Shown: piece after piece, positions 334 to 22,062 of the stretch | Numbering within the stretch: position 1 is the stretch's first letter | Layout of the letters: each line of letters starts with the position of its first letter | NCBI RefSeq assembly: GCF_000412635.1 | Contig: NZ_ASTG01000006.1 | Span: 3,254-35,253 of the forward strand | Reading direction: 5' to 3' | Source: Sphingobium bisphenolivorans | GTDB lineage: Bacteria > Pseudomonadota > Alphaproteobacteria > Sphingomonadales > Sphingomonadaceae | Length of the DNA stretch: 32,000 bases | Translations under genes and position numbers: made by a program | Notes under the pieces: model-generated | What the model was told of the DNA's origin: nothing | The model's database searches: none | What the model saw: only the letters and a program-made list of their open reading frames with translations

Positions 334-346
334 GTTCCCCCTTTCG

Positions 347-745
347 TTACGCTCGCCAGTGGCCAATCACCGGCCAGGGCGACTGGCCGGGCATCTCCAC
401 CACGCGCCTCAGTCCCGCATGAGCATGGACGTGACCGCCCGGCACCTTGATCATCAGGTGCAGTTGCAGCGGACCTGCGCGAACCAGGGCCACGTCGCCG
501 GCCATGGCCCTCGACACCTCCTTCAGACCGGCGGCGTTCAGCCAGTCCCGCGCGCGCGCTTCATTCCCCGAACGCAGGCCATATTCGTCAGGCACCACGC
601 CTCGATGTCCCGCCCCTGCATAGGCCAGCGTCGTCAAGCCGACGCAATCCAGACCTCGCGCGTCGCGCCCATGCAGGCGAAAGGGCACGCCGACCAGTGC
701 CCGCGCCGCTGCGACGATCCTCGCCGCCCGATCCGGATCGCTCAC
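347..745 (-). CDS. GTA g14-like NlpC/P60 cell-wall peptidase
   Basis: Track ORF 347..853. Motif GVPFRLHGRD..GLDCVGL (catalytic Cys context) and a later His-rich HVHAH segment. The likely start is the GTG at 745, forming a GTGA overlap with the g13 stop (742-744). Confidence 0.75.
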   Translation of the reverse strand: MSDPDRAARIVAAARALVGVPFRLHGRDARGLDCVGLTTLAYAGAGHRGVVPDEYGLRSGNEARARDWLNAAGLKEVSRAMAGDVALVRAGPLQLHLMIKVPGGHVHAHAGLRRVVEMPGQSPWPVIGHWRA

Positions 746-1557
746 GCGCCGGGATAGCGGGTCAGCAGGTCGGTGCCCGGCAGGTAGGGCTCCCCCCGGA
801 AGTTCACCGCATTGCCGAAGCGCGCGACGCAACTGTCCAGCCGCCGGTCGCATCCTTCGGTCAGCAGCGCCAGCGCCTCCGCCTCGACCGGGGAGGGCGG
901 CGGGTCCGCCAGCATCACCGCGCTGGCATCATTGTCGATCACACCCTGAACGATGCCGCAGTTGCGCCCGTTCAGCCAGCGCAGCGAGCCAAAGGCATAA
1001 TGCCCCACCTCCAACTCGCCCACATGCGCCACGGTGCCGGCAACCTCGCTCACCCGCACCAGCCGCCGCCGTCCCGCCATATCGACGCGGCACTCCCGAT
1101 CGCCCAGCGCCGCGCGGCAGTCCGGCGAGGTCGAGGGCGCAACCGGACCCTTGAGCGCCGCCATCGCGCCCACCAACTCAGCCGTGAACGCGCCGCCCTT
1201 GCGCGCCACCGCGCCGATCTCTCCCCTCGCCAGCAGCAGCCACATCGCGCCCGGCTCCTCCCATTCGGTGAGGCGCAACTCCAGCGCAGCGCCATCCCAT
1301 CGGCCCGCCATCAGGTCCGCCTCGCTGATCGCATCGGCGACCAAAGCGCCCACGATATCGGCGTCACCCCCTTCCACACCGATCCCGCTGCGCACGGCGG
1401 ACGGCGTCATCCCCGGCGCCGCGCGGTAGCGGACATACCCCACCAGCAGATCCCGGTCATGGCTCGTCAGGCCGATCGCCACACCGTCGCGCCGCTCCAG
1501 CCGCCAGCAGAAGGCCAGCGTCGCAAGCGGCTTGTCCAAAGCCTCCAGCCCGATCAT
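742..1557 (-). CDS. GTA g13-like tail hub protein (DUF2163 / BR0599-type)
   Basis: Track ORF 742..1737. The conserved part starts at MIGLEALDKPLATLAFCWRLERRDGVAIGLTSHDRDL. ATG at 1557 forms an ATGA overlap with the upstream stop (1554-1556). Confidence 0.8.
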   Translation of the reverse strand: MIGLEALDKPLATLAFCWRLERRDGVAIGLTSHDRDLLVGYVRYRAAPGMTPSAVRSGIGVEGGDADIVGALVADAISEADLMAGRWDGAALELRLTEWEEPGAMWLLLARGEIGAVARKGGAFTAELVGAMAALKGPVAPSTSPDCRAALGDRECRVDMAGRRRLVRVSEVAGTVAHVGELEVGHYAFGSLRWLNGRNCGIVQGVIDNDASAVMLADPPPSPVEAEALALLTEGCDRRLDSCVARFGNAVNFRGEPYLPGTDLLTRYPGA

Positions 1558-3884
1558 TCGCGTATCTCCACCAGCGGTACGGAGGGCGCCTCGCCCGCCG
1601 CGAAGGTCGCCCTGTTGATGTCCAGCCGATCCTCGGCAAAGCGCACCGGTACGTCGAAGCGGAAGCCGGCCGTCAGCACCGCGCCCTCCGCCGGCGCCGT
1701 ATCGAAGGCGATCACGCCCAACCCCACATGGCTCCACCCGCTGGTCAGCTCGACGCCGTCGGCCGCGACCCTGATCGTGCCAGCCACAGGCCGCGTCACC
1801 CGCCGCACCTGGGCGTCCTCGCCAGCCCCGTAGAAGCGCTGCAACCGAAACTCCGCCCGCACCCCGTCACCCACGCCCAGCCGCTGGTCGAGCGCGCCCG
1901 GCGCCTCGCCCACGGCGCAGCTGCGATCATCATAGGGGTCGGTGAAGCGGAAGCCGCGCGCAGCCCCGCGCCGCGCCCGGAAGAAAGCAATCAGCGCCGC
2001 GATGTCTGCTTCCGACCGCACCCCCGGCCCTGCATCGAAGGACAGGCGCGCATCCGCCCAGTCGCTGCTCCTGCGCTCATGGCCGGAGGGGCTCTCCACC
2101 ACCTGCGTTGAAAAGCTCGGGGCCACGCTCGCCTCCCGCCCGATAGGCAGAGGAAAACTCACATCGTCAAAGGCTTGCACATCATTCTCCCCATCCAGCC
2201 TGAAGCAGGTGAAGCCATCGCGCGCCACCTGCGGCAGCGCCCATATAAATGTCGCCGCCGTGCCCCGCTTGACCGCCGCCTCCGCCGCCGCGGCGATCTC
2301 GCGCCACTGCCCTGCCTCCTCCGGACGCAGGACGAACCCCGAAAAATAATGCTGCTCCTCGACCGGGTAGCCGAGCCGTTCGGTCGCCACCTCGACGCCG
2401 CGCGCCGTCAGCCGCTCGCGCCCCTGCGTCACCCAGTCATAATCCTCCAGCTGGAGCACATCGAAGGCCGGGGACGCCCACCCGACCGGCATGTTCGCCC
2501 GCTTCGCCTCGGGCGCGAGCGGATCGAGCACCGTCGGCAGATAGGCGAGCAGATGCGTCACGGCGCCCGGCGCCAGCCCCTTCACCCAACTGCAAAGCGC
2601 CGCCGTCGAAGCGGCCAACACCGCCCCCGCCTGATCCAGCAGCGCCTTCTGCGCCGCGCTCAAAGCACTCCGCACATCGGGAATGGAAACCGGCGCTCCG
2701 CCAAAGGCCGCTCGCGCCGCATCGTCATACAGGCAGATGCGCCCATCGGCGGGCATGACCCACCACCAGGGTTCACCAACCTGGAACCGTATCGGAATTT
2801 CGGCTGCCAACCCTATGTAAACAAAGGCGCCCGCAACCAGCCGCAAATAGCTCATGGCGCCCTCATGGGCAGGCGACAGCAAAGTCGATGGCGGTGTCCA
2901 CCCGGTCAGTGCCGGCTCGCCATTCTCCGCTCTTTGCTTCCAGTCGTTCCAGCAATGCGCGTCGAACAGTTCGTAGGACAGCGACCAAATGATCCCCAGC
3001 CCCAGCGCCTTCGCGCGTCGTGCGAAGTCCGCGTGCCAGGCGGCGCAGGGCGCATTCAGAACGCCGCCCGCCAGGCTGACATAGTGGCCGCCGCCCAGCG
3101 GTTCGAGCCGGAAATAATGGCTCATCCCGACATAATGGTTGATGTCGCCGCGATAGCCGAGCGCATGGATCATCGCCACGATCCGCTCCGGCGTCTGGTT
3201 GAAACAGTCGTCATAGCCCGTCGCCATTGACAGGCCATGTTCGGGCAGCACGACATCGCCGATGTGCAGCACCGATCCGGCACCATCGCACTGGATATCA
3301 GTCAGTTCTGCCCAACCTTCGACACCCGCTGGGAACGGCGTGCTTCCCGCATCATATCCAGGGGGCGCGAGCGAGATGAACATCCGATCGACATCGCCTG
3401 CCCAAACCGGGTCAGCTTCGCCCGGCAACAAAAATCCGCCTGCAAGATCAGAGAAGTTCAACTCGATTTCAGCATCTTCCGCGGTACCGCTCGCATAGTT
3501 CCACAGCCGCACATACCAGCTTCGCGGCTCGCCCGCCGCATCGCGCCCCTCGATCGCCAACGTCGGGCCATGCGTTTCATCCAGCCGCCGCAACCCGTCG
3601 CTCCGCCAGCGAAAGCGCAGCACGCACTGGCGAAAATCCCGCGCCGTCTCATAGGCCAGCAGCGGATGACTCCATCTGTCCTCCGCTTCCCAGATCAGCC
3701 CCGCCAGATCGCCCGATCCGTAAAAGACCGCATCCACGCGCAGCGCATCAGGCGCCGTGGTCACGACCGCCGCCATCATCGGGCGCGGGAAATTGACCGT
3801 CCAATGCGTCGGCGCAAACCGCTTGATGAAGCGGCTGTCCTGCCCCCGCCTCCGGTCGGCGAGCCAATAGTCCAGGCCACTCAT
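1554..3884 (-). CDS. 776-aa fusion: unassigned 568-aa N-terminal module + complete GTA g12/Dit-like (DUF2460/TIGR02217-type) C-terminal domain
   Basis: Single uninterrupted ORF with ATGA overlap to the TMP stop at 3881-3884. The last ~208 aa (QAFDDVSFPLPIGREASVAPSFSTQVVESPSGHERRSSDWADARLSFDAG...FRFTDPYD) look like a full-length g12. The N-terminal 568 aa have no family I can name. Confidence 0.8.
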   Translation of the reverse strand: MSGLDYWLADRRRGQDSRFIKRFAPTHWTVNFPRPMMAAVVTTAPDALRVDAVFYGSGDLAGLIWEAEDRWSHPLLAYETARDFRQCVLRFRWRSDGLRRLDETHGPTLAIEGRDAAGEPRSWYVRLWNYASGTAEDAEIELNFSDLAGGFLLPGEADPVWAGDVDRMFISLAPPGYDAGSTPFPAGVEGWAELTDIQCDGAGSVLHIGDVVLPEHGLSMATGYDDCFNQTPERIVAMIHALGYRGDINHYVGMSHYFRLEPLGGGHYVSLAGGVLNAPCAAWHADFARRAKALGLGIIWSLSYELFDAHCWNDWKQRAENGEPALTGWTPPSTLLSPAHEGAMSYLRLVAGAFVYIGLAAEIPIRFQVGEPWWWVMPADGRICLYDDAARAAFGGAPVSIPDVRSALSAAQKALLDQAGAVLAASTAALCSWVKGLAPGAVTHLLAYLPTVLDPLAPEAKRANMPVGWASPAFDVLQLEDYDWVTQGRERLTARGVEVATERLGYPVEEQHYFSGFVLRPEEAGQWREIAAAAEAAVKRGTAATFIWALPQVARDGFTCFRLDGENDVQAFDDVSFPLPIGREASVAPSFSTQVVESPSGHERRSSDWADARLSFDAGPGVRSEADIAALIAFFRARRGAARGFRFTDPYDDRSCAVGEAPGALDQRLGVGDGVRAEFRLQRFYGAGEDAQVRRVTRPVAGTIRVAADGVELTSGWSHVGLGVIAFDTAPAEGAVLTAGFRFDVPVRFAEDRLDINRATFAAGEAPSVPLVEIRE

Positions 3885-4480
3885 CCGTTCAGCGCTCCCC
3901 TCACCGCCCGCGCCACCTGCCGCGCACTGCGCGCCAGCAGCCGTGCACCGTCCTGCCCTTCGCCGCGGCCTTGCACCGCGATGCTCACCCGCACGTCGCG
4001 CGCGCCCGGCGGGCCGTGCGCGACCACCTGCCCGCTTGCCGTCGGCACGAACAGTTCGGGACCCCGCTCCCCCACCATATAGGCGCGCCCCGGCGATACC
4101 GGCCCGCCGGTCGCCCGCCCCGGAGCGCCCAGCGCCACCGCAGCAAGCTTCAGCAACCCGCCGCCGTCGCTCACACTCGCCACGCCGGACCGCAACGCAT
4201 TGGCGGCGATGTCGTCGAGCGTGCGCAGGGCGATCCGCTTCAGATCCTCAAAGCCGAACTGCCCCGTCCGCACCGCGCGCAGCAGCCCCTGTTCGATGCG
4301 CCGGCCCGCCCGCTCCGCACCCGACGCCAATGGTCCCTCCAGCTCCCCGCGCATCGCCTCGACGTCACGTCCAAAAGCCTGCCTATCCGCCCGCACCCGC
4401 ACGACCAGATCATCGATGTCCTCGTCCAAGCCCCACCTCCCAAATGCAAGAAGCCCTCCCTTCAGGTTCAGCAGGGCCAC
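3881..4480 (-). CDS. GTA g11-like short tail tape measure protein
   Basis: 199-aa ORF with the TMP-type motif YMVGERGPELFVPTASGQVV, positioned between the chaperones and Dit. The start is uncertain: GTG at 4480 lacks an SD, while an in-frame TTG at about 4429 follows GGGAGG. Confidence 0.7.
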   Translation of the reverse strand: MALLNLKGGLLAFGRWGLDEDIDDLVVRVRADRQAFGRDVEAMRGELEGPLASGAERAGRRIEQGLLRAVRTGQFGFEDLKRIALRTLDDIAANALRSGVASVSDGGGLLKLAAVALGAPGRATGGPVSPGRAYMVGERGPELFVPTASGQVVAHGPPGARDVRVSIAVQGRGEGQDGARLLARSARQVARAVRGALNG

Positions 4481-4581
4481 ATGACTCTGCTGAAGGCTGG
4501 GGAAGGACCTTTCGCGCTCACCTCCCGGCGCCCCGCTTCCTCAACTCCGCCGTTTCGAGCGAAGTCGAGAAACAGCCCGCC

Positions 4582-4776
4582 TCAATCCGGCATCATTCGC
4601 CGCAAACGCTCCAGTTCGCCCGCATCGACGCCAAGTCCCGTCTCCTCCTCTCCCCGCGCCGCGCGCAGCACCGCCTCCAGCTCGTCCGGCGTCGATCGCC
4701 AGAACTCGTCCGGCCGCCACCCCAGCAGCCATCCCGCGACCCCGGCCAACCGGGCCGCCGCCTTGAAGAAGCTCAT
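4582..4776 (-). CDS. GTA g10.1-like tail assembly chaperone (rcc01693-type small protein)
   Basis: 64 aa, MSFFKAAARLAGVAGWLLGWRPDEFWRSTPDELEAVL. ATGA overlap with the upstream gene at 4773-4776. Confidence 0.7.
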   Translation of the reverse strand: MSFFKAAARLAGVAGWLLGWRPDEFWRSTPDELEAVLRAARGEEETGLGVDAGELERLRRMMPD

Positions 4777-5084
4777 CGTCCCGCCAGTATCTGCTTCAGG
4801 ATGATCCGCAGCACCGGCGACAGCCTCGCCAGTCCGGCGCCGACGATCGCCTCGCCCAACGCTTCGCGCGTCAGGCCGCTCGGCGGATCAACCAGACAGT
4901 GCCAGAACAGCGCCGCCATATCGGCCAGTGACAGCTTTCCGTCCGCCGCGCGCTCCACCAGGTCGAACAGCGGCCCCAATTCCTCCTCCGCCGCCACCAG
5001 CGCCGCGAAGCTCGGCCGCAGCGTCAGCGTCTCGCCGCCAAGGTCCAGCGCGGCCTCGCCCCGCGCCCCATTCGCCCCGCTCAC
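4773..5084 (-). CDS. GTA g10-like tail assembly chaperone
   Basis: 103 aa, located directly after the major tail gene. GTGA overlap at 5081-5084. Confidence 0.7.
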   Translation of the reverse strand: MSGANGARGEAALDLGGETLTLRPSFAALVAAEEELGPLFDLVERAADGKLSLADMAALFWHCLVDPPSGLTREALGEAIVGAGLARLSPVLRIILKQILAGR

Positions 5085-5488
5085 AGCGACACCACTGCGC
5101 CAGAGCTTTCCAGGCTCAGCGCATAATTGCGCTCGCCATTATAATCGCCCGCATAGTCAAGCCGGGTGACCAGGAAGCGGCCGCGCATCCGCTCGCCGCT
5201 TTCGAAGCTCAGCTCGTAATCCTCGATCGTCCCGGCCAGCGCATGGTTGCGCAGCCGCACTTCCGCCGCCGATCCGGTGAAAATCCCGGCCGCCGACACG
5301 CTGACCGATCGCACGCCGGCGCCCGAAAGCAACTCGCGCCAGCCGCCGCTGTCCTTGGTCGTGACGTTGACTGCCTCGCCATTCACCGACAGCTGCGTCG
5401 TCCGCATGCCGGCGACGGTCGCATAGGCTGCGGGGCTACCGCCATCGCCTATTCTCAACAGAAACGCGCTTCCTTTTTCCACAGCCAT
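5081..5488 (-). CDS. GTA g9-like major tail protein (TP901-1-type)
   Basis: 135 aa, MAVEKGSAFLLRIGDGGSPAAYATVAGMRTTQLSVNGEAVNVTTKDSGGWRELL. AAGGAG SD upstream. Confidence 0.85.
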   Translation of the reverse strand: MAVEKGSAFLLRIGDGGSPAAYATVAGMRTTQLSVNGEAVNVTTKDSGGWRELLSGAGVRSVSVSAAGIFTGSAAEVRLRNHALAGTIEDYELSFESGERMRGRFLVTRLDYAGDYNGERNYALSLESSGAVVSL

Positions 5489-5543
5489 GGAGCATTCTCC
5501 TTTAAGACAAGTCGTGCATGAATCGGGATTTGGAGAGGTTTAG

Positions 5544-5873
5544 ATGCTCGTTGCCGCACCCCTCATTTTGATGCTGGCCGCTGCTCCGCAGGGTGCCGAC
5601 GCGGTCGGCGCGGGCCGCAAGGCCTATTCGGAATGCTTGTCGAAGCAGATTCAGCCTGCGCTCGACAAGAAGCTGACGCTCGCCGACTTCCAGTCCGCAC
5701 TGAAGGAAAAGTGCGGCGCGCAGGAAACAGCCTTCCGCACCGCCATCGTCAACGACGACAAGTCCAGCAAGATGTCCGATGCGGACGCACAATCGGACGC
5801 GGACGAACAGGTTTCGGAATATAAGGACAAGATCGTCGGCGAGTTCGAGGATTATTCCAAGCCCGGCGGCTGA
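5544..5873 (+). CDS. small secreted protein (signal peptide, 2 Cys, Lys/Asp-rich), opposite strand inside the GTA cluster
   Basis: GGAGAGG SD 5 nt before the ATG. Signal peptide MLVAAPLILMLAAAPQGADA. High GC3 in this frame. The overlapping minus ORF 5502..5894 looks like a shadow. Confidence 0.65.
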   Translation: MLVAAPLILMLAAAPQGADAVGAGRKAYSECLSKQIQPALDKKLTLADFQSALKEKCGAQETAFRTAIVNDDKSSKMSDADAQSDADEQVSEYKDKIVGEFEDYSKPGG

Positions 5874-6063
5874 CCGCGCGCTCCGCATCCCCACTCAGCG
5901 TCATGCTGAACTTGTTTCACCATCCATCCATCGCCCCGAGCGATAGCCTGTGGAGGCGCGGTGGATGCTGAAGCGAATTCCTCGCAACATTATGCGTCGT
6001 GCCTCAGTCTGAACTGACCTGCAGCGTGCAGAAAAGGTTCGGCCGCGGTTGAGACAGATCGCG

Positions 6064-6459
6064 TCAGCCCCGCACCACCCGCAGCCGATAATCCGCCACG
6101 CCCTGCCAGCCATCCCGCGTTCCGGTCCGCGCCACACGCGAGCGCACCAGCCGCGCGCTGATGACCCGCCACTCGGCCCCCGCGCCGACATCGCGAACCA
6201 CCAGATCGATCAGCGCCAGCAGCGCTCCCAGCCGCTCCGGCCGCTCCCCGACATCGTACAGCTGGATCGCCAGCGTCAGTTCGCGCCCATCAACATCCTT
6301 CGCACCCCAGTCGTTGCCCAGGCAGTCGCCCACCACCGCATAGGGCTCGCTCGCCCGCCCCGGCCTGCCATCGAACAGGCCATTGAGGCCGCTCATCAGC
6401 GCGCTGTCCGCCCGCAAAGCCTCGATCAGGGCCGCTCGCACCGCCACCTCAGCGCTCAT
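6064..6459 (-). CDS. GTA g8-like tail terminator protein (DUF3168-type)
   Basis: 131 aa, MSAEVAVRAALIEALRADSALMSGLNGLFDG. ATGA overlap at 6456-6459. Confidence 0.8.
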   Translation of the reverse strand: MSAEVAVRAALIEALRADSALMSGLNGLFDGRPGRASEPYAVVGDCLGNDWGAKDVDGRELTLAIQLYDVGERPERLGALLALIDLVVRDVGAGAEWRVISARLVRSRVARTGTRDGWQGVADYRLRVVRG

Positions 6460-6662
6460 CCCCGTCCCCTTCCCGCCTCACGCAGCGCCAAATCGCTGAG
6501 CCACCGCCGCCTCAGCCCCGGCCCGCGCAGCCGCACCAGTTCACCTTCGATGCCGACATCCTCGACGCCGGCCGCGCGCACCGCCGCCGCGATTTCACGG
6601 CGCCGCTTCTCCGCCCCGGATTCCATCAGCGCCTCCACCAGCGCCTGCAGCCGCGCCCTCAT
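6456..6662 (-). CDS. 68-aa hypothetical protein at the g7 (head-closure) position
   Basis: Tail of track ORF 6456..7049. ATG at 6662 forms an ATGA overlap with the g6 stop (6659) and an ATGA overlap with the g8 start. Sequence MRARLQALVEALMESGAEKRRREIAAAV...; no recognisable family. Confidence 0.5.
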   Translation of the reverse strand: MRARLQALVEALMESGAEKRRREIAAAVRAAGVEDVGIEGELVRLRGPGLRRRWLSDLALREAGRGRG

Positions 6663-7138
6663 GTCAGCCGCATCCGCCGCCAGGGCCGCCACAGCGCGCT
6701 CACGACAGCAGGCGGCGTCGCCACCTGCCCGTCCCGTGCTCCGAAATGCTCCGCCGCCAGCCGCACTATGCCCTGCCGGATGGCATCGGGCAGCCCTTCG
6801 GCATCCTGCGCCATGCCTGCATGATAGCGCACGGTGGCCATGCCCACATCTGGACGTACCCGTACCCAGCCGTCCCCCGCCGCATCGATGTCGATCGCAT
6901 AGGCATCCGCCGCCAGCGCGCTCCCCTGCGCCTCCACGCCCAGGATAGCCACGACGGGCCGCCCCGACAGCCTCTGCCATGTTCCGTCCGCACCCGCCGT
7001 CTCGCTGGCCTCGCGCACGATCAGCCATTGTCCGATGAACTGTTCGCAAAGCCCCGTGGCGCTCGCCAGCAGCCGCTCCAGCACGCCATCCTCATCATCC
7101 GACCCGATCCGCAACCAGGCCTTAAGCTCCACCAGCAC
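6659..7138 (-). CDS. GTA g6-like head-tail connector/adaptor (phage gp6-like)
   Basis: 159 aa, MLVELKAWLRIGSDDEDGVLERLLASATGLCEQFIG, a typical gp6-like N-terminus. GTG start after the GGGGAGGG SD. Confidence 0.8.
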   Translation of the reverse strand: MLVELKAWLRIGSDDEDGVLERLLASATGLCEQFIGQWLIVREASETAGADGTWQRLSGRPVVAILGVEAQGSALAADAYAIDIDAAGDGWVRVRPDVGMATVRYHAGMAQDAEGLPDAIRQGIVRLAAEHFGARDGQVATPPAVVSALWRPWRRMRLT

Positions 7139-7262
7139 GCGCCGCCCTCCCCTTGAAAAAGGGGGACGCCCTACGGACGCCCCCAGCTTCCTTCTCCCTC
7201 CCGGAGAAGGATACGCAGCCTTGCCAGCTCTGCTGGCTAGGCGAAGTTGGATGAGGCCGACG

Positions 7263-8375
7263 TCAGGACGCTGCGAACTTCATCAGCTTGATCGCCTCCG
7301 AATTGGCGACCGCGCCGCCGATCCGCTTGACCGCATAGAAATGCACGAACGGCTTGTTGCTGAACGGATCGCGGAGGATGCTCGTCTCGCTGCGCTCTGA
7401 GACGACATAGCCCGCCTTGAAGTTACCAAAGGCGATCGAGAGCGACCCCGCCGCCAGATCGGGCATGTCCTCGGCCTCGATCACCGGATAGCCGAGCAGC
7501 GTCGCCGGCTGCTCTGCGGCCAGCGAAGGCTGCCAGATGAATGCGCCGTCGGTCGTCTTCATCTTGCGGATGACCGCCAGCGTCGCCGAATTCATCACGA
7601 AGCACGCCCCCTGCCGGTAGGGGGCCCGCAGGCTCTGCACCAGGTCGATCAGCTTGTCCGGACCCGCCGCCGTGAACGCACCCGAAGCCCCCGACGCCAC
7701 ATATTGCAGCGACCCGAATGCGCGCACGCTGTCCGCCTCGTTGGTCGTCGTATAGGTCAGGAAGCCCTTGGGCTTGTTCGTTCCATTGCCGTTCACGAAC
7801 GCCGCACCCTCTGCCGCCGCGAACTCGCGCGCAATCTCGCCCGCCAGCCAGCTCTCGACATCGAACTCAGCGTCGTCCAGCATCGCCTGGCTCGCCGCCG
7901 GATTGGCGTAGAGCTCGCCATAGGGCGGCACGATCTCGTTGAAGCTCGGCGTCGCCGTCTCCGTCCGTGCACCCGTCTCGCTCGCCCAGCCCGACACGAT
8001 GCCGCCCGACGTCACCAGCTTGCGATAGCCCGCCGATCCCGTGCGCACCACATTGGCGATGCTCCTGATCGGCGAGATGCTTTTCAGCGTCGCGTCGATG
8101 ATCTGGTCGATCTCGCGGGGCACCGCATAGCCGCCTGCCGTGCCGGACGCCCCCGAAAAGCTCTTCAGCTCCACCCCCGCCTCAAGCCCCTGCCGCAGAT
8201 AGCGTTCGACAAAGGCAGCGTGCCGCGGATCGGCGGCCCCGCCCTTCACCCCGTCCAGCGCCGGCCGCTGCTGCGCCAGCAGGCTCCCCTTCAGCGCGGC
8301 GACCTCACCCTCCAGCTCCGCGATGCGCTCACCCCGCACCACCGCGTCAAAGCTTGCTTCCAACTGGTCCGTCAT
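7263..8375 (-). CDS. GTA g5-like HK97-family major capsid protein
   Basis: 370 aa with an N-terminal coiled segment followed by an HK97-like body (GGYAVPREIDQII, FVMNSATLAVIRK). GGGAG SD. Confidence 0.9.
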   Translation of the reverse strand: MTDQLEASFDAVVRGERIAELEGEVAALKGSLLAQQRPALDGVKGGAADPRHAAFVERYLRQGLEAGVELKSFSGASGTAGGYAVPREIDQIIDATLKSISPIRSIANVVRTGSAGYRKLVTSGGIVSGWASETGARTETATPSFNEIVPPYGELYANPAASQAMLDDAEFDVESWLAGEIAREFAAAEGAAFVNGNGTNKPKGFLTYTTTNEADSVRAFGSLQYVASGASGAFTAAGPDKLIDLVQSLRAPYRQGACFVMNSATLAVIRKMKTTDGAFIWQPSLAAEQPATLLGYPVIEAEDMPDLAAGSLSIAFGNFKAGYVVSERSETSILRDPFSNKPFVHFYAVKRIGGAVANSEAIKLMKFAAS

Positions 8376-8389
8376 CCACTACTCCCACG

Positions 8390-8417
8390 AAAAAGGGCGG
8401 CCCGAACCGGACCGCCC
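8390..8417 (-). terminator. intrinsic-terminator-like hairpin + U5 between the protease and capsid genes
   Basis: Minus-strand RNA GGGCGGUCC-GGUUC-GGGCCGCCC (9 bp including one G-U) followed by UUUUU. It lies 29 nt after the protease stop and ends 14 nt before the capsid ATG. Confidence 0.55.
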
Positions 8418-8446
8418 GCACAGAAACCTCTTGAGCGCCCAAGCGC

Positions 8447-8842
8447 CTATTCCACCGCGATCACCCGCGCCAGGGGCTGCATCGGGTGCGTCACCACGCT
8501 CACCTCCACCACCTCCAGGTCCAGCAGTTCGCGCGGCCCATGCCCCCGCGCAGCCCGCACCCGATAGCCGAACGAGAGCCCGTCCACCGCCTTCTCCCGC
8601 AGCGCCCGCGCCGCCTCCCGCCCCGCCGCCGTTCGCGCCGACACCCGCCCGATCACCCGCAGGCCGCGCGCATCCTCCTCGATCCGCTCGACCGTGCCGA
8701 TCGCCTCCCCCGGCCGATGCTGCCACAGCAGCGGCACCCCCGCCGCCGCTCCCGCAAAGGCGCCCGCCCGCACCACGTCGCCACCGCGATCGACCCGGTC
8801 GAACACCGCCGCATAGCCGGCGAAGCGCAGATCCCCGCTCAC
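8447..8842 (-). CDS. GTA g4-like HK97-family prohead protease
   Basis: 131 aa, MSGDLRFAGYAAVFDRVDRGGDVV...LLWQH...DGLSFGY (His/Ser contexts). GTGA overlap at 8839-8842. Confidence 0.85.
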   Translation of the reverse strand: MSGDLRFAGYAAVFDRVDRGGDVVRAGAFAGAAAGVPLLWQHRPGEAIGTVERIEEDARGLRVIGRVSARTAAGREAARALREKAVDGLSFGYRVRAARGHGPRELLDLEVVEVSVVTHPMQPLARVIAVE

Positions 8843-9159
8843 GCCCGCACCAGCCCCAGCAGCCCCAGCTTCACCGCCATGCCCAGCAGCAGCAGCGCCA
8901 TCACGATCCGCACGGCCCAGGCGACGACAGCGCCCCGCGCCGCCTTCTTGGCGTCACGCCAGGCGCCCAGCAGCTCGCGCAATTCCCGCACGTCGCCTTC
9001 AGCGCTCCGGTCGGCCAGCCCCAGCCGCTCCAGCGCCCGCCCGGCGCCCAGCTCGCTCGCCTCCTCGACCAGCGCCCGGATCATCAGCATGTCGCACCCC
9101 ACCGGCTGCGCTTCCGCCTGAGCCACCAGCCGGGCCAGCATCTCCCCATCATATTTCAT
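8839..9159 (-). CDS. small C-terminally membrane-anchored protein at the g3.5 position
   Basis: Inner part of track ORF 8839..9303. ATG at 9159 forms an ATGA overlap with the portal stop (9156). MKYDGEMLARLVAQAEAQ... ends in the hydrophobic helix AVVAWAVRIVMALLLLGMAVKLGLLGLV. Confidence 0.6.
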   Translation of the reverse strand: MKYDGEMLARLVAQAEAQPVGCDMLMIRALVEEASELGAGRALERLGLADRSAEGDVRELRELLGAWRDAKKAARGAVVAWAVRIVMALLLLGMAVKLGLLGLVRA

Positions 9160-10295
9160 CGTGCCGCTCCCATCCCCAGCATCGCCCGCTTCTCTTCCCC
9201 GCTCAGGAAGTCCGCCGCCGCCACCCTGTCCCACAGCGCCCCGCGCTCCTCGGCCAGCGCCGGCACGGCATCCAGGTCGGCGCGCAGACAAAGCTCCGGC
9301 CACCAGCCTTGCAGCCCCTGCGCCAGCCCGCCGAAAATCTTGCCCAGCAGCGGCAGGATCGTCTGCCGCCAGAGCGCCCGGTTGGCCTCGCGATAATTGG
9401 CATAGGCATTGTCGCCCGGCAGCCCCATCAGCATCGGCGGCACCCCAAAGGCCAATGCGATCTCCCGCGCCGCCGCCGCCTTCAGCCCCACGAAATCCAT
9501 CTCGGCCGGCGTCAGGCTCATCGCCTTCCAGCTGAGCCCCCCTTCCAGCAGCATCGGCCGCCCTGCATTGGCCGCGCCGGAAAAGGCGACCTCCATCTCC
9601 CGCTTCACGCGCTCGAACTGTTCCGGGCTCATCACCGACCCGTCGCCCGGCTCATAGACCATCGCGCCCGAAGGCCGCGCGGCATTGTCGAGCAGCGCCT
9701 TGTTCCACACCGTCGCGGCATTGTGGATCGCCACCGCGCCCGCAGCCGCGCCGATGCATCCCAAGCCATAATGATCGTCCAGCGGATGCAGCGCCTTCAA
9801 ATGGATGATGCTCGTCCGTCCGGCGCTATCCTGGGGCGAGAGCCGCGTCACGCTATCCCCGACACGATAGAGATAGGCAGCCGGCCACCCCCGCCCGTCC
9901 GCCTCGACGCTCACCCGCTCGGGCCGCAGCGCGTATAGCTCAGCCGGTAGTCCGTCCGCCCCCAGCAGCATCTGCACATAGCCGTTGCCATGCAGCAGCA
10001 GATGGCTCGCCAGCGTCTCGACCAACGGCTGCCCCGCCGAACAATGGGTCAGCAGCGCGGCGATCTTCCTTCGCTCCCGCTCTTCCACGCCGGCGACCGT
10101 CAGGGCGGTCCCGCTCGCGCCCTCCGCCACCAGCCGCATCGCCCGCTGCGCCACCGGATTGCCCAGCACCGCCGCGCGCACCTGCGCCTCATAGGATGCG
10201 GGCCATTCGCCCAGCGCGACGCCGCCCGATCCCCAGGCGCGCGCCAGCACCGGCCGCGCGCCCCCGCGCGCCGCTTTCGTCCCGAAAAATTTCAT
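9156..10295 (-). CDS. GTA g3-like portal protein
   Basis: 379 aa with phage portal (HK97-type) character, e.g. LLLHGNGYVQML and FGVPPMLMGLPGDNAYANYREANRALWRQTILP. Confidence 0.9.
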   Translation of the reverse strand: MKFFGTKAARGGARPVLARAWGSGGVALGEWPASYEAQVRAAVLGNPVAQRAMRLVAEGASGTALTVAGVEERERRKIAALLTHCSAGQPLVETLASHLLLHGNGYVQMLLGADGLPAELYALRPERVSVEADGRGWPAAYLYRVGDSVTRLSPQDSAGRTSIIHLKALHPLDDHYGLGCIGAAAGAVAIHNAATVWNKALLDNAARPSGAMVYEPGDGSVMSPEQFERVKREMEVAFSGAANAGRPMLLEGGLSWKAMSLTPAEMDFVGLKAAAAREIALAFGVPPMLMGLPGDNAYANYREANRALWRQTILPLLGKIFGGLAQGLQGWWPELCLRADLDAVPALAEERGALWDRVAAADFLSGEEKRAMLGMGAAR

Positions 10296-10309
10296 GCAAA
10301 CCCCGCCAC

Positions 10310-10337
10310 AAAAAATCCTCCCCGCTCGGGGGAGGAT
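10310..10337 (-). terminator. canonical intrinsic terminator downstream of the glycine-zipper gene, 14 nt upstream of the portal ATG
   Basis: Minus-strand RNA AUCCUCCCC-CGAGC-GGGGAGGAU (9-bp perfect stem) followed by UUUUU. Confidence 0.65.
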
Positions 10338-10392
10338 AGTGAAGCCCGGCGACGATCAGCCGCCTAACGAAAGATGGAAAGGGGCGACGCCC

Positions 10393-10734
10393 TCAAGGAT
10401 TGCGGGCCAATACCCGGTCGCAAGCCGCGTTCGTGCCCTCGCTCTTGCCGATCACCCGGCCCGCGACCGCTCCCGCCGCACCAGCCAGCAGCGATTCACC
10501 CAGGCTCCCGCCCGCCAGCGCCCCCACGCCAGCCCCGCCGGCCGCGCCGATCACAGTGCCGCGGTCGCGCCCTTTCTTCCCCTGAAGCAGGCAATAGCGC
10601 ACCTCGTCCCTATCCCGTGGCGCCGCCCGCGCCACCCGCGCGCGCTCCTTGCCGTTGAGCGAAGCGGCGAGAGCCGGGGTTGTCGCCACAGCCATGCCAG
10701 CCAGAACCATCACAAATTTAGCGCCCATTTTCAT
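10393..10734 (-). CDS. secreted glycine-zipper protein (Gly-zipper/17-kDa-antigen-like) inserted between terL and portal
   Basis: Signal peptide MKMGAKFVMVLAGMAVATTPALA. Gly-zipper GAAGGAGVGALAGGSLG..AGAAGAVAG. AGGAGG SD. Confidence 0.75.
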   Translation of the reverse strand: MKMGAKFVMVLAGMAVATTPALAASLNGKERARVARAAPRDRDEVRYCLLQGKKGRDRGTVIGAAGGAGVGALAGGSLGESLLAGAAGAVAGRVIGKSEGTNAACDRVLARNP

Positions 10735-10764
10735 ATCTCAAGCTCCTCCTAGATCGCCTGAATA

Positions 10765-10790
10765 TACGCCAGGAGCCGCAGCGCAGTTCC
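10765..10790 (-). promoter_or_regulatory. ECF (EcfG/general-stress-type) promoter-like element GGAAC-N17-CGTA upstream of the glycine-zipper gene
   Basis: Minus strand reads GGAAC tgcgctgcggctcctgg CGTAtatt, about 30 nt upstream of the ATG at 10734. The alphaproteobacterial EcfG consensus is GGAAC-N16-17-CGTT, so there is one mismatch. Confidence 0.4.
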
Positions 10791-10900
10791 GGCACCCCGA
10801 CACTCCCCCTGTTCCTGCGATCCGAAGAAGGCCGTCGGCCAACGCAGGAACCCGGCTCGAACGGCGGGGCGGGGCTCCTGTCCGCAGGAGCACGACATCC

Positions 10901-12223
10901 CTAAATTATCCGCACCCGCGCGTCCGACCACCGCCCCAGCATCAACTCGGTCAACGCCCAGACCAGCGCATCCGCCCGGTCCGGCGACCGCCCCGGCCCG
11001 ACATAGCCGCCGCCCATCACCATGCCGCACATCTGGTCTTCCAGCTGCCAGAGGGCGCCGCGATGCGCCACGCGCCCTGCCTCGTAGAGCGCCGCCACCG
11101 GCTCCGCCCGCGCCACCTTGCCCCGGCTCGCATGGACCAGCCGCACCGGCAAAGCGGCCTCCGCCGCCCGCAGCACGCTCTCGACCATCGCGCCGCCATT
11201 ATTGGCTTCAGCGACAACCCGGTCGGCACCATGCGCGACTGCCGCCGCTGCGACCGCGCGCGCCCAGCCCTCCGGCCTCATGCCCTCGACAGTAGCGTCG
11301 GCAATGACATAGGCGCGCCCGTCACCGCCCAGGCCAGCAACGACAATCCCGCAGGCATCGCCATCGGCGGAAGCGGGCGGGTCCACCGCCACCACTACCC
11401 GCGACAGCGTGCCCCCTTGCGGCACATGCGGCACCCGGCATCGCTCCAGCAGATCGCGGCTCCACAGCGCGCCCTGCACATCCTCGATCAGTTCACCGTG
11501 CAGCTCCTGCCGCCCGAGCCGCGTGCCGCCATAGCTGCGCTCCATCGCGGCGACGAAGCCGTCCGCCAGATGCGCCGCATTGTCCGCCGTCCGCCCCCGC
11601 GTCACCACGACATCCGCGCCGTCCCGCGCCACCAGCCCGCACACCAGCGGCACCGGACGCGGCGTGGTCGTCGCCAGCACACGCGGCCGCGCGCCCAGCC
11701 GCATGCCCATCATCAGATTGTCCCAGCACATCTCGCCCGCCGGCCATTTCGCGATTTCGTCGGCCCAGCCATGGCTGAACTGGGGCCCGCGCAGGCTCTC
11801 CGGCTCCGCCGCGCCGAACAGCGACGCGACCGCGCCATTGGGCCACAGCAGCCTGCGCAGAGCGGGCGAGAAGACCGGCCGGTTCCACCAGGGTGCCACC
11901 GCCAGGATTCCCGACGGTCCCTCCACCATCACGGCGCGCGTCTCGCCCAGCGTCGCCCCAACGATAGCGATCCGCGCCGATGGGTCATTTTCCGCGATCG
12001 TCCTGACCCATTCGGCGCCCGCCCGTGTCTTGCCGAAGCCGCGCCCGGCCATCATCAGCCAGATGGTCCAGTCACCCCCCGGCGCCAGTTGTTCCGGTCG
12101 CGCCAGCCACCGCCAGTCATGCGCCAGCGCCTCGGCCGCCGCGCCGTTCAGGCCGGCCAGCACCCGCTCGCGCTCCGCTTCGGGCAAGCGCGCCAGCCGC
12201 TCGAAATCCGAAAGGCTCCCCAT
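10901..12223 (-). CDS. GTA g2-like terminase large subunit
   Basis: Track ORF 10901..12247. Walker A GRGFGKT. The preferred start is ATG at 12223 (MGSLSDFERLARL), preceded by AAGGAG; ATG at 12247 is an alternative. Confidence 0.9.
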   Translation of the reverse strand: MGSLSDFERLARLPEAERERVLAGLNGAAAEALAHDWRWLARPEQLAPGGDWTIWLMMAGRGFGKTRAGAEWVRTIAENDPSARIAIVGATLGETRAVMVEGPSGILAVAPWWNRPVFSPALRRLLWPNGAVASLFGAAEPESLRGPQFSHGWADEIAKWPAGEMCWDNLMMGMRLGARPRVLATTTPRPVPLVCGLVARDGADVVVTRGRTADNAAHLADGFVAAMERSYGGTRLGRQELHGELIEDVQGALWSRDLLERCRVPHVPQGGTLSRVVVAVDPPASADGDACGIVVAGLGGDGRAYVIADATVEGMRPEGWARAVAAAAVAHGADRVVAEANNGGAMVESVLRAAEAALPVRLVHASRGKVARAEPVAALYEAGRVAHRGALWQLEDQMCGMVMGGGYVGPGRSPDRADALVWALTELMLGRWSDARVRII

Positions 12224-12310
12224 GCACCCCTGCTCCTTTCGCCACATTCTGCCTTATTTTCGGGCTCCGGCCCTTTTCGCGGCGCATGCCCCGAACCTAT
12301 ATGCCTCGCC

Positions 12311-12751
12311 ATGTCTTCGATCCGACCCGCCCGCGCCGCCGATGGTGCCCGCCTGCTCGACATCTGGCGCAGCGCCGTCGATGCGACCCATGATTTTCTC
12401 TCGGCGCAGGACCGCTTCGCCATAGAGCAGGAAGTGTCCGCCTCGCTTCCCAATGCTCCCGCCTGGCTCGCAACCGATCCCGATGATCGCGCGGTCGGCT
12501 TCATGCTGATCGACGGCACGCATATGGATGCGCTCTTCATCGATCCCGAATGGCGCGGCCAAGGGATCGGCCGCCTCCTCGTCGAGCATGGCCTTGCCCT
12601 GCACCCAACGCTTACGACCGACGTCAACGAACAGAATGAACAGGCGATCGGCTTCTACGAACGTCTCAACTTCGCCCGCACGGGCCGTTCGGACACGGAT
12701 GGACAGGGCCGCCCCTACCCTCTCCTCCACCTACGCCACGCGCCCGCCTAG
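12311..12751 (+). CDS. GNAT-family N-acetyltransferase
   Basis: Last 146 codons of the 700-aa track ORF 10649..12751. MSSIRPARAADGARLLDIW... with the acetyl-CoA motif RGQGIGRLLVEH. Confidence 0.8.
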   Translation: MSSIRPARAADGARLLDIWRSAVDATHDFLSAQDRFAIEQEVSASLPNAPAWLATDPDDRAVGFMLIDGTHMDALFIDPEWRGQGIGRLLVEHGLALHPTLTTDVNEQNEQAIGFYERLNFARTGRSDTDGQGRPYPLLHLRHAPA

Positions 12752-12955
12752 ACCATCCGGCCTCGCGGCCATTTCGCCCGAACCATCTCCGGCGCCGAAC
12801 GCAGATTGCCTCTTCACATCTTGCCGCCTCACCCTCCCGCTCCGCTGCATCCCCGACAACCCTCCGCCGTTCCCCAAATATCGTCACCCCGGGCTCCCGC
12901 TGCCTGCCCCGTCGCGTCCAGCGCAGCGCAGGAGGCCTGACGCCGGAACATCCCG

Positions 12956-13531
12956 TCACCCCTCATCCTCACCCTTCGCCCGGACAGCCTCCAACGCCGC
13001 ACGCAGCCGCTCCACCGCGTCGTCCCCATCCGGGCGCTCCGCCTTTTCTCTCAGGCGCCCGGCTTCCCGCTCCACTTCAACGGCATGCTTCTCCAGCAGC
13101 AGCGCTGCGATTCGGTGAGGATAGCTTTTCCTGATCTTCCGGCTCTTCACCGCGCCCTCGCCATCCAGCACGATCTCCTCCTCCTCGACGCCGAACAACG
13201 ACTGCCGCAGCAACTGGGTCTGAAGTTCCGCATATCCGACATCCAGCGCCCGCGCCCATTCGCGCGCGAAGCTGCTGCTGCGCCGCTTGTGATAATAGGC
13301 GGTCGACAGATTGATCCCCGCCACCCGCGCCGCCTCGCTGACATTGCAGGTCCCCGCCAGCGTCTCCAGGAAGATCCTGTGCCGCTCGGGCGTCAGCCCG
13401 TCCTTGCGTCTTGCCCGCAGTTGCGGTCCGCTGCCGAAAGCCCCCAACTGGTTGTGCTGCAGGGTCATCGTGCGGTCCGGCGCATCGCTGGCCCTGCCGC
13501 CAAAGCGCGCCTTGTTCACCTTGTCCGTCAT
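12956..13531 (-). CDS. HTH protein resembling phage terminase small subunits (TerS-like)
   Basis: Inner part of track ORF 12956..13657. ATG at 13531 sits 6 nt after a GGGGGG run. GLTPERHRIFLETLAGTCNVSEAARVAGINLSTAYYHKRRSSSFAREWARALDVGYAEL matches the HTH-plus-helical pattern of many alphaproteobacterial phage TerS proteins. Assigned by pattern only. Confidence 0.45.
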   Translation of the reverse strand: MTDKVNKARFGGRASDAPDRTMTLQHNQLGAFGSGPQLRARRKDGLTPERHRIFLETLAGTCNVSEAARVAGINLSTAYYHKRRSSSFAREWARALDVGYAELQTQLLRQSLFGVEEEEIVLDGEGAVKSRKIRKSYPHRIAALLLEKHAVEVEREAGRLREKAERPDGDDAVERLRAALEAVRAKGEDEG

Positions 13532-13681
13532 GCCCATCCCCCCGTCACCGAAAGACGAAGGGCCAGTCCTCTCTTCAAGGACCGGCCCGCACCGCCGCAT
13601 CAGCGACTCACATTTTCCAGTGTCGCCATCTTTGCCAGAACAGCGTGACGATGTCAAGAAAAATGTTCCAGATCGGTTAGT

Positions 13682-14329
13682 TCATGATGCGGCCATACGC
13701 TGGATCATGGGCTCCTCGGCCGCCAGGGCGGAAGCGAAACTCGGCCGCTCCATGATCTGCTGCAGCCAGCGTTGCACCTTGGGCCAACGCCCGTTTGCCG
13801 GCACCTCGCTGCAATAGCCGATGTTGATCAACGGGCAGGCAACCGCGATATCTGCAAGCGTGAAGCGCCCCTCCACCAGGAAGCCGCTGTCCGCCATCAC
13901 CGTTTCAAGATAGTCCAGCGCCCGGGGCAGAGCCTCTGCTTCAGCCTGCGCGGCCGCGTCCAGATCCTGCGGAAGGCCCAGCAGCGGAGCGACCATCCGA
14001 TGAAAGAATATCGCGCCCCCCGCCGGCTGGACGATGGTGTCGCCAAACTCCTCATACCAGATCGTCCGGGCTCTTGCCCTGGCTTCCGTCGGGATCAGAT
14101 TGGGCTCGGGGTACAGCGTGTCCAGATAGGTTATGATGGCGCTACTGTCGCTGATCAGGAAGTCGCCATCCTTAAATGCGGGCATCTTCCCGAAGGGCGA
14201 CGCTTCCTGGAAAATCTGACCGCCTTGGCCGAAGCCGCCGGGTTGCAGTTCCAGCTCGACGCCCTTCTCCGCCGCGAAGACGATCACCTTGCGCACAAAG
14301 GGCGAGGGCCCCGCTCCATACAAGATCAT
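13682..14329 (-). CDS. glutathione S-transferase
   Basis: 215 aa, MILYGAGPSPFVRKV... (thioredoxin-like N-domain with SPF) plus a helical C-domain. Confidence 0.8.
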   Translation of the reverse strand: MILYGAGPSPFVRKVIVFAAEKGVELELQPGGFGQGGQIFQEASPFGKMPAFKDGDFLISDSSAIITYLDTLYPEPNLIPTEARARARTIWYEEFGDTIVQPAGGAIFFHRMVAPLLGLPQDLDAAAQAEAEALPRALDYLETVMADSGFLVEGRFTLADIAVACPLINIGYCSEVPANGRWPKVQRWLQQIMERPSFASALAAEEPMIQRMAAS

Positions 14330-14377
14330 GCATCATTCCCCTTCTCATCTTGCGGTCCGCTGCCCGTGCAGCGGAAT

Positions 14378-15187
14378 TCATCCACCGTCGCCGCTTCCTG
14401 TGCTCGCCACGCTCTGCCGGTAATCGATCCTGATGCGGACCCAGCTGCCCACCATCACCTTGCCATTGACCCGGGGCGGCAACACGAGGAATTGCCATGC
14501 CGCCAGCCGGACCGCCTTGGCAAAGCCCGATCCCAGCGGGGATTCGCCCAGCGCCTGGCAATTTTCGACATGATAATTGTCCACCGTCTTGCAGGCGACC
14601 AGCCCCCACCCCGCGCGCGGTGCGTCGCTCGGCAGGTAGCTCGCCAGTTCCGTATGGGTGGGCCGTCGATACCATTCCGCCTCGAACAGCTGGACGCCGC
14701 CCGGCCCCTCTCCCGGGCCGGAAACGGCTGCACTGTTCCCCTTCCCGGGCGTACCTTCGCTGCCACCGCTTGCCGGCGCTTTGGCGATGTTGGCTGCGGC
14801 CATCTGCTGACTATCGAGCACCAGGAACGGCAGGGGCGAAGGCAGCTGCGGCAAAGGCCGCGCCACCGGCAGCAGCGGCCTCAATTCCGGCTTAACCAGC
14901 GGCTCCGGCCGTTTTTTCTCCGGGACCTGCCGTTCGGGCTCCTTCTCGCGCTTCTTTTCCTGTTTCTCGGGCTTTTTGGCCTTGCTCTCCGCCTTCTCCT
15001 CTTTCTCCGCCTTGGGCGCAGGCGCCATTTCGAAGGTGACCGGATTGCGCAGGTCGGGCAGCTGCACGACCGGCTTGGGCGCCAGCGTCAGCAACGCCAG
15101 CAGCAATAGTCCGTTGAACAGCAGCGCGAACAGCATGCCGCCGCCGCGCTCGCGCCATTTCGGTGTCAGGGGTTGTGCAAGGGTCAA
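14378..15187 (-). CDS. TonB-family energy-transducer-like protein
   Basis: N-terminal TM helix, a Lys/Glu/Pro-rich spacer (KAEKEEKAESKAKKPEKQEKKREKEPERQVPEKKRPEP) and a TonB-C-like C-terminal domain. Confidence 0.65.
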   Translation of the reverse strand: MTLAQPLTPKWRERGGGMLFALLFNGLLLLALLTLAPKPVVQLPDLRNPVTFEMAPAPKAEKEEKAESKAKKPEKQEKKREKEPERQVPEKKRPEPLVKPELRPLLPVARPLPQLPSPLPFLVLDSQQMAAANIAKAPASGGSEGTPGKGNSAAVSGPGEGPGGVQLFEAEWYRRPTHTELASYLPSDAPRAGWGLVACKTVDNYHVENCQALGESPLGSGFAKAVRLAAWQFLVLPPRVNGKVMVGSWVRIRIDYRQSVASTGSGDGG

Positions 15188-19222: not shown

Positions 19223-19894
19223 ATGTTGACACCCAAGCAACAGGAATTGCTCAGCTTCATTCAGATCCGGTTGGAGGAAGACGGCGTGTCTCCTTCCTTC
19301 GAGGAGATGAAGGAAGCGCTCGACCTGCGTTCCAAGTCCGGCATTCATCGGCTTATCAACGCACTGGAGGAACGCGGCTTCATCCGGCGGCTCGCCAATC
19401 GCGCTCGTGCGCTGGAGGTGCTCAAGCTTCCCGAAGCCATGCATCGCGCGCCAAAGGCGGTAGCTTCGTCAAAGCCGCAACTGCCCGCCAGCCCTCCTAT
19501 GGCGGCTAATGACGTCGTTGAAATCCCGCTCCATGGACGCATCGCCGCAGGCGTGCCGATCGAAGCGCTGGAGGGGCAGAATATGCTCTCGGTGCCCGCC
19601 GCGCTGCTTGGAGCCGGCGATCATTATGCTCTCGAGGTCGCCGGAGACTCGATGATTGAAGCAGGCATATTGGACGGCGATTTTGCATTGATCCAACGCA
19701 CCGAGGTCGCGCGCGAGGGGGAGATCGTCGTGGCGCTTGTCGAGGAAAGCGAGGCGACGCTCAAATATTTCCGCCGGGAAGGGCCAAAAGTCCGGCTCGA
19801 TCCGGCCAACAGCGCCTATGAGGCGCAGATCTACGATCCGCGTCAGGTTCGCATTCAGGGCCGATTGGCTGGGCTGTTGCGGCGATATAACTGA
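19223..19894 (+). CDS. lexA: LexA SOS repressor
   Basis: Track ORF 19160..19894; ATG at 19223 after [22 protein letters not shown]..., a winged-helix N-domain, and an S24 peptidase C-domain (GDSMIEAGI, the Ser site, followed by a Lys-containing segment). Confidence 0.93.
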
Positions 19895-21975: not shown

Positions 21976-22062
21976 TCTCCGCTCCACATTCCCGGAAACG
22001 GAGGTTTGTCGTGGCTCAAAAGCCATGCTAGGGGGCGCAGCGATCATGGATGGGCAGGACGA

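Follow-up and report, generated by a model that had tools for sequence, protein, structure and literature searches.

The analysed window is a stretch of 32,000 nucleotides, part of a 3.8-Mb Sphingobium genome, and its left half is occupied by an RcGTA-type head-tail cluster of a gene transfer agent (GTA) on the minus strand. The subject of this report is the junction between two genes of that cluster, terL (large terminase) and portal, where a small gene for an exported glycine-zipper protein, here designated gz, lies behind a predicted general-stress promoter and in front of a terminator-like hairpin. The terL stop codon and the portal ATG are 605 bp apart. This spacer, with all its elements on the minus strand, agrees with the same-strand insertion of about 600 bp noticed in a preliminary description of the DNA. 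In the direction of transcription it consists of a 7-bp hairpin, the sequence GGAAC-N17-CGTA, a Shine-Dalgarno (SD) sequence, an open reading frame (ORF) of 113 codons and a 97-nt non-coding stretch, followed by the portal ATG. The features of the junction are listed below, with the basis of each in brackets.

10901-12247, minus strand: terL, GTA large terminase gene, g2-like (Pfam Terminase_6N, E 6.8e-25; Terminase_6C, E 4.5e-22)
10874-10891, minus strand: hairpin GCTCCTG-CGGA-CAGGAGC, 7 bp, without a T-run, directly after the terL stop codon (sequence; not called by the terminator scan)
10765-10790, minus strand: predicted EcfG-type promoter, -35 GGAAC at 10786-10790, 17-nt spacer, -10 CGTA at 10765-10768 (sequence and footprint)
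10745-10750, minus strand: SD sequence AGGAGG, 10 nt before the ATG (sequence)
10393-10734, minus strand: gz, exported glycine-zipper protein of 113 aa, ATG at 10734 (ORF, signal, alignment)
10296-10392, minus strand: portal leader of about 100 nt with hairpins A, B (about 10348-10364) and C, the last being the terminator (25-locus alignment, RNAalifold)
10309-10337, minus strand: intrinsic-terminator-like hairpin followed by T6, stem 10337..10315, 9 bp, 5-nt loop (terminator scan)
9156-10295, minus strand: portal, GTA portal gene, g3-like (Pfam Phage_portal, E 3.4e-70)

Since the 7-bp hairpin after terL is not called as a terminator, transcripts of the GTA operon can run into gz. Sigma-70-like promoter sites were not detected in scans of 9000-13000 and 1-14500. 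An Rfam scan of 9500-13000 gave nothing meaningful, the best matches being a miRNA family (E 0.24) and GA-cis (E 3, other strand).

The predicted stress promoter and the gz protein

The -10 element CGTA ends 30 nt before the start codon of gz. For the phylogenetic footprint, 30 orthologous Sphingobium loci, with genes 64-88% identical to gz of the window, were compared. The -35 element GGAAC was invariant at 30 of the 30 loci and was separated by 16 or 17 nt from the -10 element, which was CGTT at 19 loci, CGTA at 9, GCTT at one and TGTT at one, and whose end lay 20-46 nt upstream of the start codon. With 0-0.7 bit per position, the spacer and the two flanks are unconserved. The element, which had been reported as EcfG-like with one mismatch, was thus found at the place given and conserved in every locus compared.

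The genome also carries the corresponding regulatory system. PhyR was identified with 374.7 bits (NF006623, cut-off 240), and phyR is adjoined by a gene for an extracytoplasmic function (ECF) sigma factor, which is itself preceded by GGAAC..CGTT. At this locus (G000:C1, about 99.5-101.6 kb) the promoter motif is followed by an ORF for a predicted membrane protein of 44 aa and then by the sigma gene; no ORF there was recognised as a canonical NepR. Genome-wide, intergenic GGAAC-N16-17-CGTT upstream of an ORF occurred at 23 sites (11 with an SD sequence), as compared with 5-10 sites (0-1 with an SD sequence) for six control spacings. Raw motif counts without the positional filter were uninformative (52 against about 45 for the control spacings). 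The genes behind the motif sites include those for DUF1328, Transgly_assoc and hemerythrin proteins and for small charged or secreted proteins, all of which are typical general-stress genes. The motif determined experimentally in Sphingomonas melonis is GGAAC-N17-20-GTT, mostly within 100 bp of the coding sequence (CDS), and one EcfG-regulated gene of that species has GTA at -10 (PMC6599016). In the window, the motif, its spacing and its distance from the CDS correspond to those of EcfG (ECF15) promoters apart from one mismatch, and PhyR, an EcfG-like sigma factor and a regulon with the same motif are present in the genome. The assignment as an EcfG-type promoter is thus strongly backed by the footprint and the genome-wide regulon, and the gz promoter is predicted to depend on EcfG.

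The preliminary description was also right about the product, a 113-aa protein with a signal peptide and a glycine zipper. The predicted Sec signal peptide (residues about 1-24) consists of a lysine-rich n-region and a hydrophobic core of 13 residues and ends in ALA/AS. A lipobox Cys is absent, no Cys being found before residue 48. A basic helical N-terminal part, conserved as ARVARAAPRDRDDVRYC, precedes the glycine-zipper segment (residues 59-99). Among 33 diverse homologues 26 residues are invariant, including Cys48 and Cys105, which flank the zipper, and 9-14 of the 33 match one of the families PF05433, PF13488 and PF13441, with E values down to 2e-5. No match was obtained for gz against NCBIfam, and a profile search of the PDB sequences for a solved relative gave chance-level SecE matches (E at least 0.15).

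Distribution of gz and cargo of the junction

Homologues of gz number 152 and are nearly all from Sphingobium, where 53 of the 61 sampled genomes carry one at E ≤ 0.001, about 45 of them strong (E ≤ 1e-20). Among 201 sampled Sphingomonadaceae genomes gz was found in 10 at E ≤ 1e-8, and portal was found in 91 of 121; gz was not seen at the terL-portal junction in 29 loci of other genera. Presence and absence in related GTA clusters, which had been put forward as a check, indicate that gz does not belong to GTAs universally. In three genomes (G053, G088 and G253) orthologues with 56-60% identity have unrelated chromosomal surroundings, and in two others (G156 and G084) the gz orthologue and portal are on different contigs. 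The portal search gave no match at E ≤ 1e-30 in G053 and G088, and the G053 orthologue also has GGAAC-N17-CGTA upstream. Since gz is absent from the GTA clusters of other genera and has orthologues outside GTAs, it is an accessory and not a structural gene; it lacks the presence across lineages that characterizes the RcGTA-type structural set (g1-g15).

In the portal tree the gz-bearing loci fall into one clade with 100/100 support, in which gz is present in 20 of 22 rows. G009 is nested inside the clade and has other DNA at the junction, and G008, at the unresolved base of the clade, has an empty junction (terL, about 115 nt, portal). The sister Sphingobium lineages G026, G046 and G150 have no gz at the junction. 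The simplest history that these sequences suggest is one gain and at least one loss, with vertical inheritance in the core Sphingobium clade. The ratio of nonsynonymous to synonymous substitution rates (dN/dS) was 0.13 for mature gz, 0.44 for the signal peptide, 0.25 for portal and 0.20 for terL; the value of 0.13 points to strong purifying selection and indicates that gz is expressed and selected. The GC content of gz (0.699) is like that of terL (0.720) and portal (0.699), the flanks being 70-72% GC, and at third codon positions it is 0.76, against 0.84-0.85 in the flanks. A recent or foreign acquisition was considered and rejected, in view of the flank-like GC content, the single gain, the vertical descent and the dN/dS of 0.13.

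Across the family, the terL-portal gap can be as short as about 20 bp or exceed 1.5 kb. Gaps of about 20-130 bp, in keeping with the earlier statement that the two genes are normally adjacent, were seen in about half of the 29 loci of other genera. The contents of the wider junctions differ from lineage to lineage: a ParE toxin (E 9e-13) with a PaaA2-like antitoxin, about 895-1477 upstream of portal, in a member of another genus (G161, L040); a secreted TonB_C protein (G145); an SDH-type ClpP-like protease (G111); a PEP-CTERM protein on the opposite strand (G077); and a DUF559 endonuclease (G085). In the Sphingobium outgroup G046 (L069, positions 235-984) a LuxR-type regulator with Autoind_bind and GerE domains lies between terL and portal, an intriguing occupant because RcGTA is under quorum-sensing control. 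Within the gz clade, extra genes have accreted on either side of gz, among them nitroreductase-like and GIY-YIG-like ORFs (labels given by eye). A conserved ORF of about 210-250 aa, nitroreductase-like by eye, lies between terL and gz at five loci (L013, L016, L017, L028 and L030). At L028 there is no portal within 1.5 kb, and an ORF of about 240 aa, Sel1-repeat-like by eye, lies downstream on the opposite strand. With this gene content, the junction between terL and portal in GTA clusters of Sphingomonadaceae acts like the moron slot of a phage, its cargo differing between lineages.

The portal leader and the terminators of the cluster

The terminator-like hairpin ends 14 nt before the portal ATG, just outside the interval 10393-10900 given in the preliminary description. 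It forms the last part of the portal leader, which runs in the order hairpin A, AAGTTTCGGTA, hairpin B, AACCTTCACTATCC, hairpin C, T5-8. Hairpin B (GGCGGC..GCCGCC) shows covariation of the types GC/CG, UA/CG and GC/AU, and hairpin C with its T-run is kept in all of the 25 Sphingobium loci with this leader that were aligned; the portal tree assigns 20 of these to the core clade. The leader stays at portal when gz lies 200-980 nt further upstream, and in G008, which has no gz, it stands directly after terL and is followed by portal. The terminator claimed earlier as the third element of the cassette is thus real as a hairpin with T6, but it belongs to a portal-linked repeat element and is not the cassette's own. 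A terminator inserted together with gz was considered as a candidate and rejected, both on its presence without gz and on its position at portal when gz is distant. At L028-L030 a separate terminator is found 44 nt after the gz stop codon.

With a covariance model of the leader, some 15-20 additional full-length matches were detected in the genome (E 8e-8 to 0.03), among them seven copies, 94-97% identical, of a dispersed unit of 210-245 bp resembling a miniature inverted-repeat transposable element (MITE). Examples of the dispersed leader copies are as follows.

G000 C10:59185-59285: dispersed leader copy
G000 C11:90577-90674: dispersed leader copy
G000 C1:159910-160008: dispersed leader copy

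Judged by the model and the alignment, the portal leader belongs, as a diverged copy, to a repeat family of the repetitive extragenic palindromic (REP) or MITE-like type that is dispersed in the genome. Neither the dispersed copies nor the leaders of the outgroups G026 and G150 have the T-run, and portal and one further site are the only places in this genome where TTTT follows a hairpin of the leader type. A hairpin already in place thus seems to have gained its U-tract in the clade in which the stress promoter is also present. The dispersed repeats might also explain why cargo collects at the terL-portal junction. Two further observations concern the leader. At L006 and L018 two tandem copies of the hairpin-C element lie between gz and portal. 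The gz stop codon (10381-10395 region), or the terL stop codon in G008, abuts hairpin A, and it is conceivable that the G-rich and C-rich arms of hairpins A and C pair alternatively in a leader fold sensitive to translation.

Similar hairpins were found around the capsid gene.

8395-8417, minus strand: terminator-like hairpin followed by T5, just upstream of the capsid gene (terminator scan)
7263-8375, minus strand: capsid gene
7162-7184, minus strand: terminator-like hairpin followed by a T-run, downstream of the capsid gene (terminator scan)

One of the two stops about 14 nt short of the capsid ATG, an arrangement like that at portal. Because hairpins with T-runs also flank the capsid gene, internal terminators are a property of the whole cluster rather than of the gz cassette. 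They suggest either a dependence of the cluster as a whole on antitermination or a capsid mRNA stabilised by hairpins. The minus-strand cluster further includes a DUF6127 gene and the genes for S78 prohead protease, tail completion, tail tube, GTA-gp10, a baseplate hub and a fused tail protein with NCTSP (non-contractile tail sheath) and DUF2460 domains. Another break in this operon is a plus-strand ORF of 109 aa (5544-5873) between tail genes, for which no Pfam match was obtained. About 7 kb from the cluster, a gene for a competence channel of the ComEC family (19855-23085, minus strand; Competence, E 3e-55) was identified. ComEC is required for the uptake of GTA DNA in Rhodobacter.

Proposed regulation of gz and comparison with known systems

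We consider it moderately probable that gz is a moron-like passenger of benefit to the host, with its own EcfG promoter, that the repeat-derived terminator insulates portal from this promoter, and that antitermination overcomes the terminator during GTA induction. Under general stress, PhyR would release the EcfG-type sigma factor, and RNA polymerase carrying it would start a few nt after CGTA. A leader of about 20 nt with the strong SD sequence AGGAGG would then allow efficient translation. The pre-protein would be exported by Sec and cleaved after ALA to give a non-lipidated mature protein of 88 aa, its glycine-zipper hairpin probably clamped by a Cys48-Cys105 disulfide. By analogy with stress-induced glycine-zipper proteins, mature gz may have a role in the envelope of stressed or stationary-phase cells that does not depend on GTA particles. 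Promoter and gene would have entered the junction once, in the core Sphingobium ancestor, immediately upstream of the pre-existing hairpin element at portal. Transcripts driven by EcfG would end at the hairpin and U6, leaving portal and the late GTA genes silent in stressed non-producers.

As there is no terminator between terL and gz and no room for a promoter between the terminator and portal, portal needs a polymerase from upstream to pass the terminator. Upon GTA induction, polymerase entering from upstream of terL would cross gz, the terminator and the two capsid-flanking terminators by GafZ-type antitermination. A DUF6456 gene of the GafA/GafZ family is present (G000:C2:20499-20879, 130.9 bits), and no EcfG-type motif was detected within 1.5 kb of it. 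Antitermination of an internal GTA terminator by GafZ has been demonstrated in Caulobacter (PMC11150451), and GafA homologues, annotated as DUF6456, have been reported from 94% of GTA-bearing Alphaproteobacteria (PMC9638019, PMC9765227).

Several observations weigh against this reading. The -10 element of the window is CGTA and not CGTT, a variant with weak enrichment genome-wide (6 promoter-like sites, 3 of them with an SD sequence, against 0-7 and 0-2 for controls). The motif by itself is not significant in the window, where its single match compares with at least one match in 38 of 100 shuffles; the promoter gains significance only through its position and its conservation in the orthologous loci. 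In Pfam, gz matches Rick_17kDa_Anti and Gly-zipper_Omp with scores that do not reach the gathering cut-offs (E about 2e-3; 18.6 bits against 24.2 and 18.2 against 25, with PF05433, PF13488 and PF13441 tested), and the AlphaFold2 model built from the 33-sequence alignment is poor and all-helical (predicted local distance difference score, pLDDT, 60; predicted template modelling score, pTM, 0.46), so that the envelope role is proposed by family analogy. The co-orientation of gz with the operon and its retention there throughout the clade would fit a GTA-related role as well. Finally, the link between the U-tract and the presence of gz comes from a single clade and represents one evolutionary event, which makes it a hypothesis and not a correlation.

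The numbers from the shuffles and the mismatch at -10 would also suit a fortuitous match, gz then being silent or dependent on transcripts that run through from the GTA promoter. We regard this as extremely improbable, because at 30 diverged loci the -35 element is invariant and the -10 element nearly so at a fixed spacing while neighbouring bases vary freely, and because the dN/dS indicates an expressed and selected gene. It is rather unlikely that gz is a factor of the GTA life cycle, for instance in envelope remodelling for release or in a block of re-adsorption or DNA entry, expressed mainly with the operon and kept at a stress baseline by the EcfG promoter. Such a role would agree with the strand of gz, the open path from terL, the conserved position in the core clade and a purifying selection stronger than on the flanking GTA genes, and phage morons often encode envelope or exclusion proteins. 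Against it stand the lack of gz in the GTA clusters of all other genera sampled, its orthologues in unrelated contexts, including the two genomes without a portal match, the retention of GTA genes without gz in G009 and G008, and the conserved dedicated stress promoter, which a member of the operon would not need.

The promoter could instead provide a stress-gated entry into the late GTA genes, with gz as the first gene of a transcript from portal to the tail genes and the hairpin as a leaky attenuator. The 14 nt between terminator and portal, too short for a promoter, the lack of sigma-70-like sites around the junction and the gz stop codon abutting hairpin A, by which translation could remodel the leader fold, are in line with this arrangement, and GTA production in Caulobacter is linked to stationary phase and starvation (PMC9632790). 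The hairpin with T5-8, however, looks like a strong terminator and is strictly conserved, it precedes portal even without gz, terS and terL would fall outside such a transcript, and in several relatives 200-980 nt of extra cargo lie between gz and portal, with the separate terminator at L028-L030. We regard this entry as distinctly improbable. There is a similarly small chance of a stress-gated side entrance in which translation of gz or a GafZ-like factor decides on the passage of the terminator, or of gz as the first envelope gene of conversion type to serve the GTA. If the side entrance existed, the general stress response would be wired directly to the production of GTA particles.

Returning to gz as an insulated passenger of the host, one genus-level clade would have long fixed an envelope gene with predicted stress regulation in the cargo slot of its GTA. 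The coupling of a stress envelope gene to the GTA locus proposed in the preliminary description is physical; evidence for a functional coupling was not found, and orthologues occur outside GTAs. GTAs are usually described as compact, host-controlled structural operons, and a partial literature search gave no description of morons or cargo insertions in GTA clusters, which is a weak negative. The practical value is modest, gz being a candidate member of the EcfG regulon and its surroundings a clean promoter/terminator pair for Sphingobium reporters.

Phage morons are extra transcription units between the late genes of lambdoid and HK97-type phages, such as bor and lom of lambda, a concept of Juhala, Hendrix and colleagues. 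The junction resembles them in the extra gene between genes adjacent in relatives (about half of the 29 loci, and G008), the terminator behind it, the predicted envelope-type product, unrelated to virion assembly, and the varied cargo of the slot; a promoter of its own is predicted for gz from the footprint. In this sense the proposal of a moron unit stood as to an extra gene with a predicted promoter of its own, but not as to the terminator, which is resident, nor as to age and composition. Unlike phage morons, gz sits in a domesticated GTA that does not replicate and is an ancient, vertically inherited gene of flank-like composition; the terminator derives from a resident genomic repeat and the promoter is of the general-stress ECF-sigma type.

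With the EcfG/PhyR regulons of Sphingomonadaceae, as described for Sphingomonas melonis Fr1 (PMC6599016) and Sphingopyxis granuli TFA (PMC7083833), gz shares a promoter of the GGAAC-N16/17-CGTT type within 100 nt of the start codon; typical members of these regulons are small proteins of unknown function that are secreted or located in the membrane. It differs from those members in its location inside a GTA cluster, none such being found in the literature searched, and in CGTA at -10. Like the Rick_17kDa_Anti, Gly-zipper_Omp and YMGG proteins, gz is short and exported, with a G/A-rich two-helix zipper and predicted control by a stress regulator. SlyB and OsmB of E. coli are stress-induced glycine-zipper envelope proteins. 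From lipoproteins of the SlyB/OsmB type, gz is set apart by the absence of a lipobox, the distinctive basic N-terminal part, the two invariant Cys residues and the Pfam scores below cut-off.

In the Sphingobium cluster, predicted intrinsic terminators stand before key structural genes, that of portal recruited from a dispersed repeat, which fits control by GafZ antitermination and makes the cluster a simple natural test bed for this mechanism outside Caulobacter. As in the CcGTA system of terGTA and GafYZ (PMC11150451), a terminator inside the head-tail cluster must be bypassed for the downstream structural genes, and a DUF6456 gene is present. CcGTA terGTA consists of three 150-bp repeats after the first gene, whereas in Sphingobium a hairpin with a U-tract is found before portal and before capsid. 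Unlike terGTA, the portal terminator derives from a dispersed repeat of about 100 nt, and antitermination in Sphingobium is proposed by analogy with the Caulobacter system.

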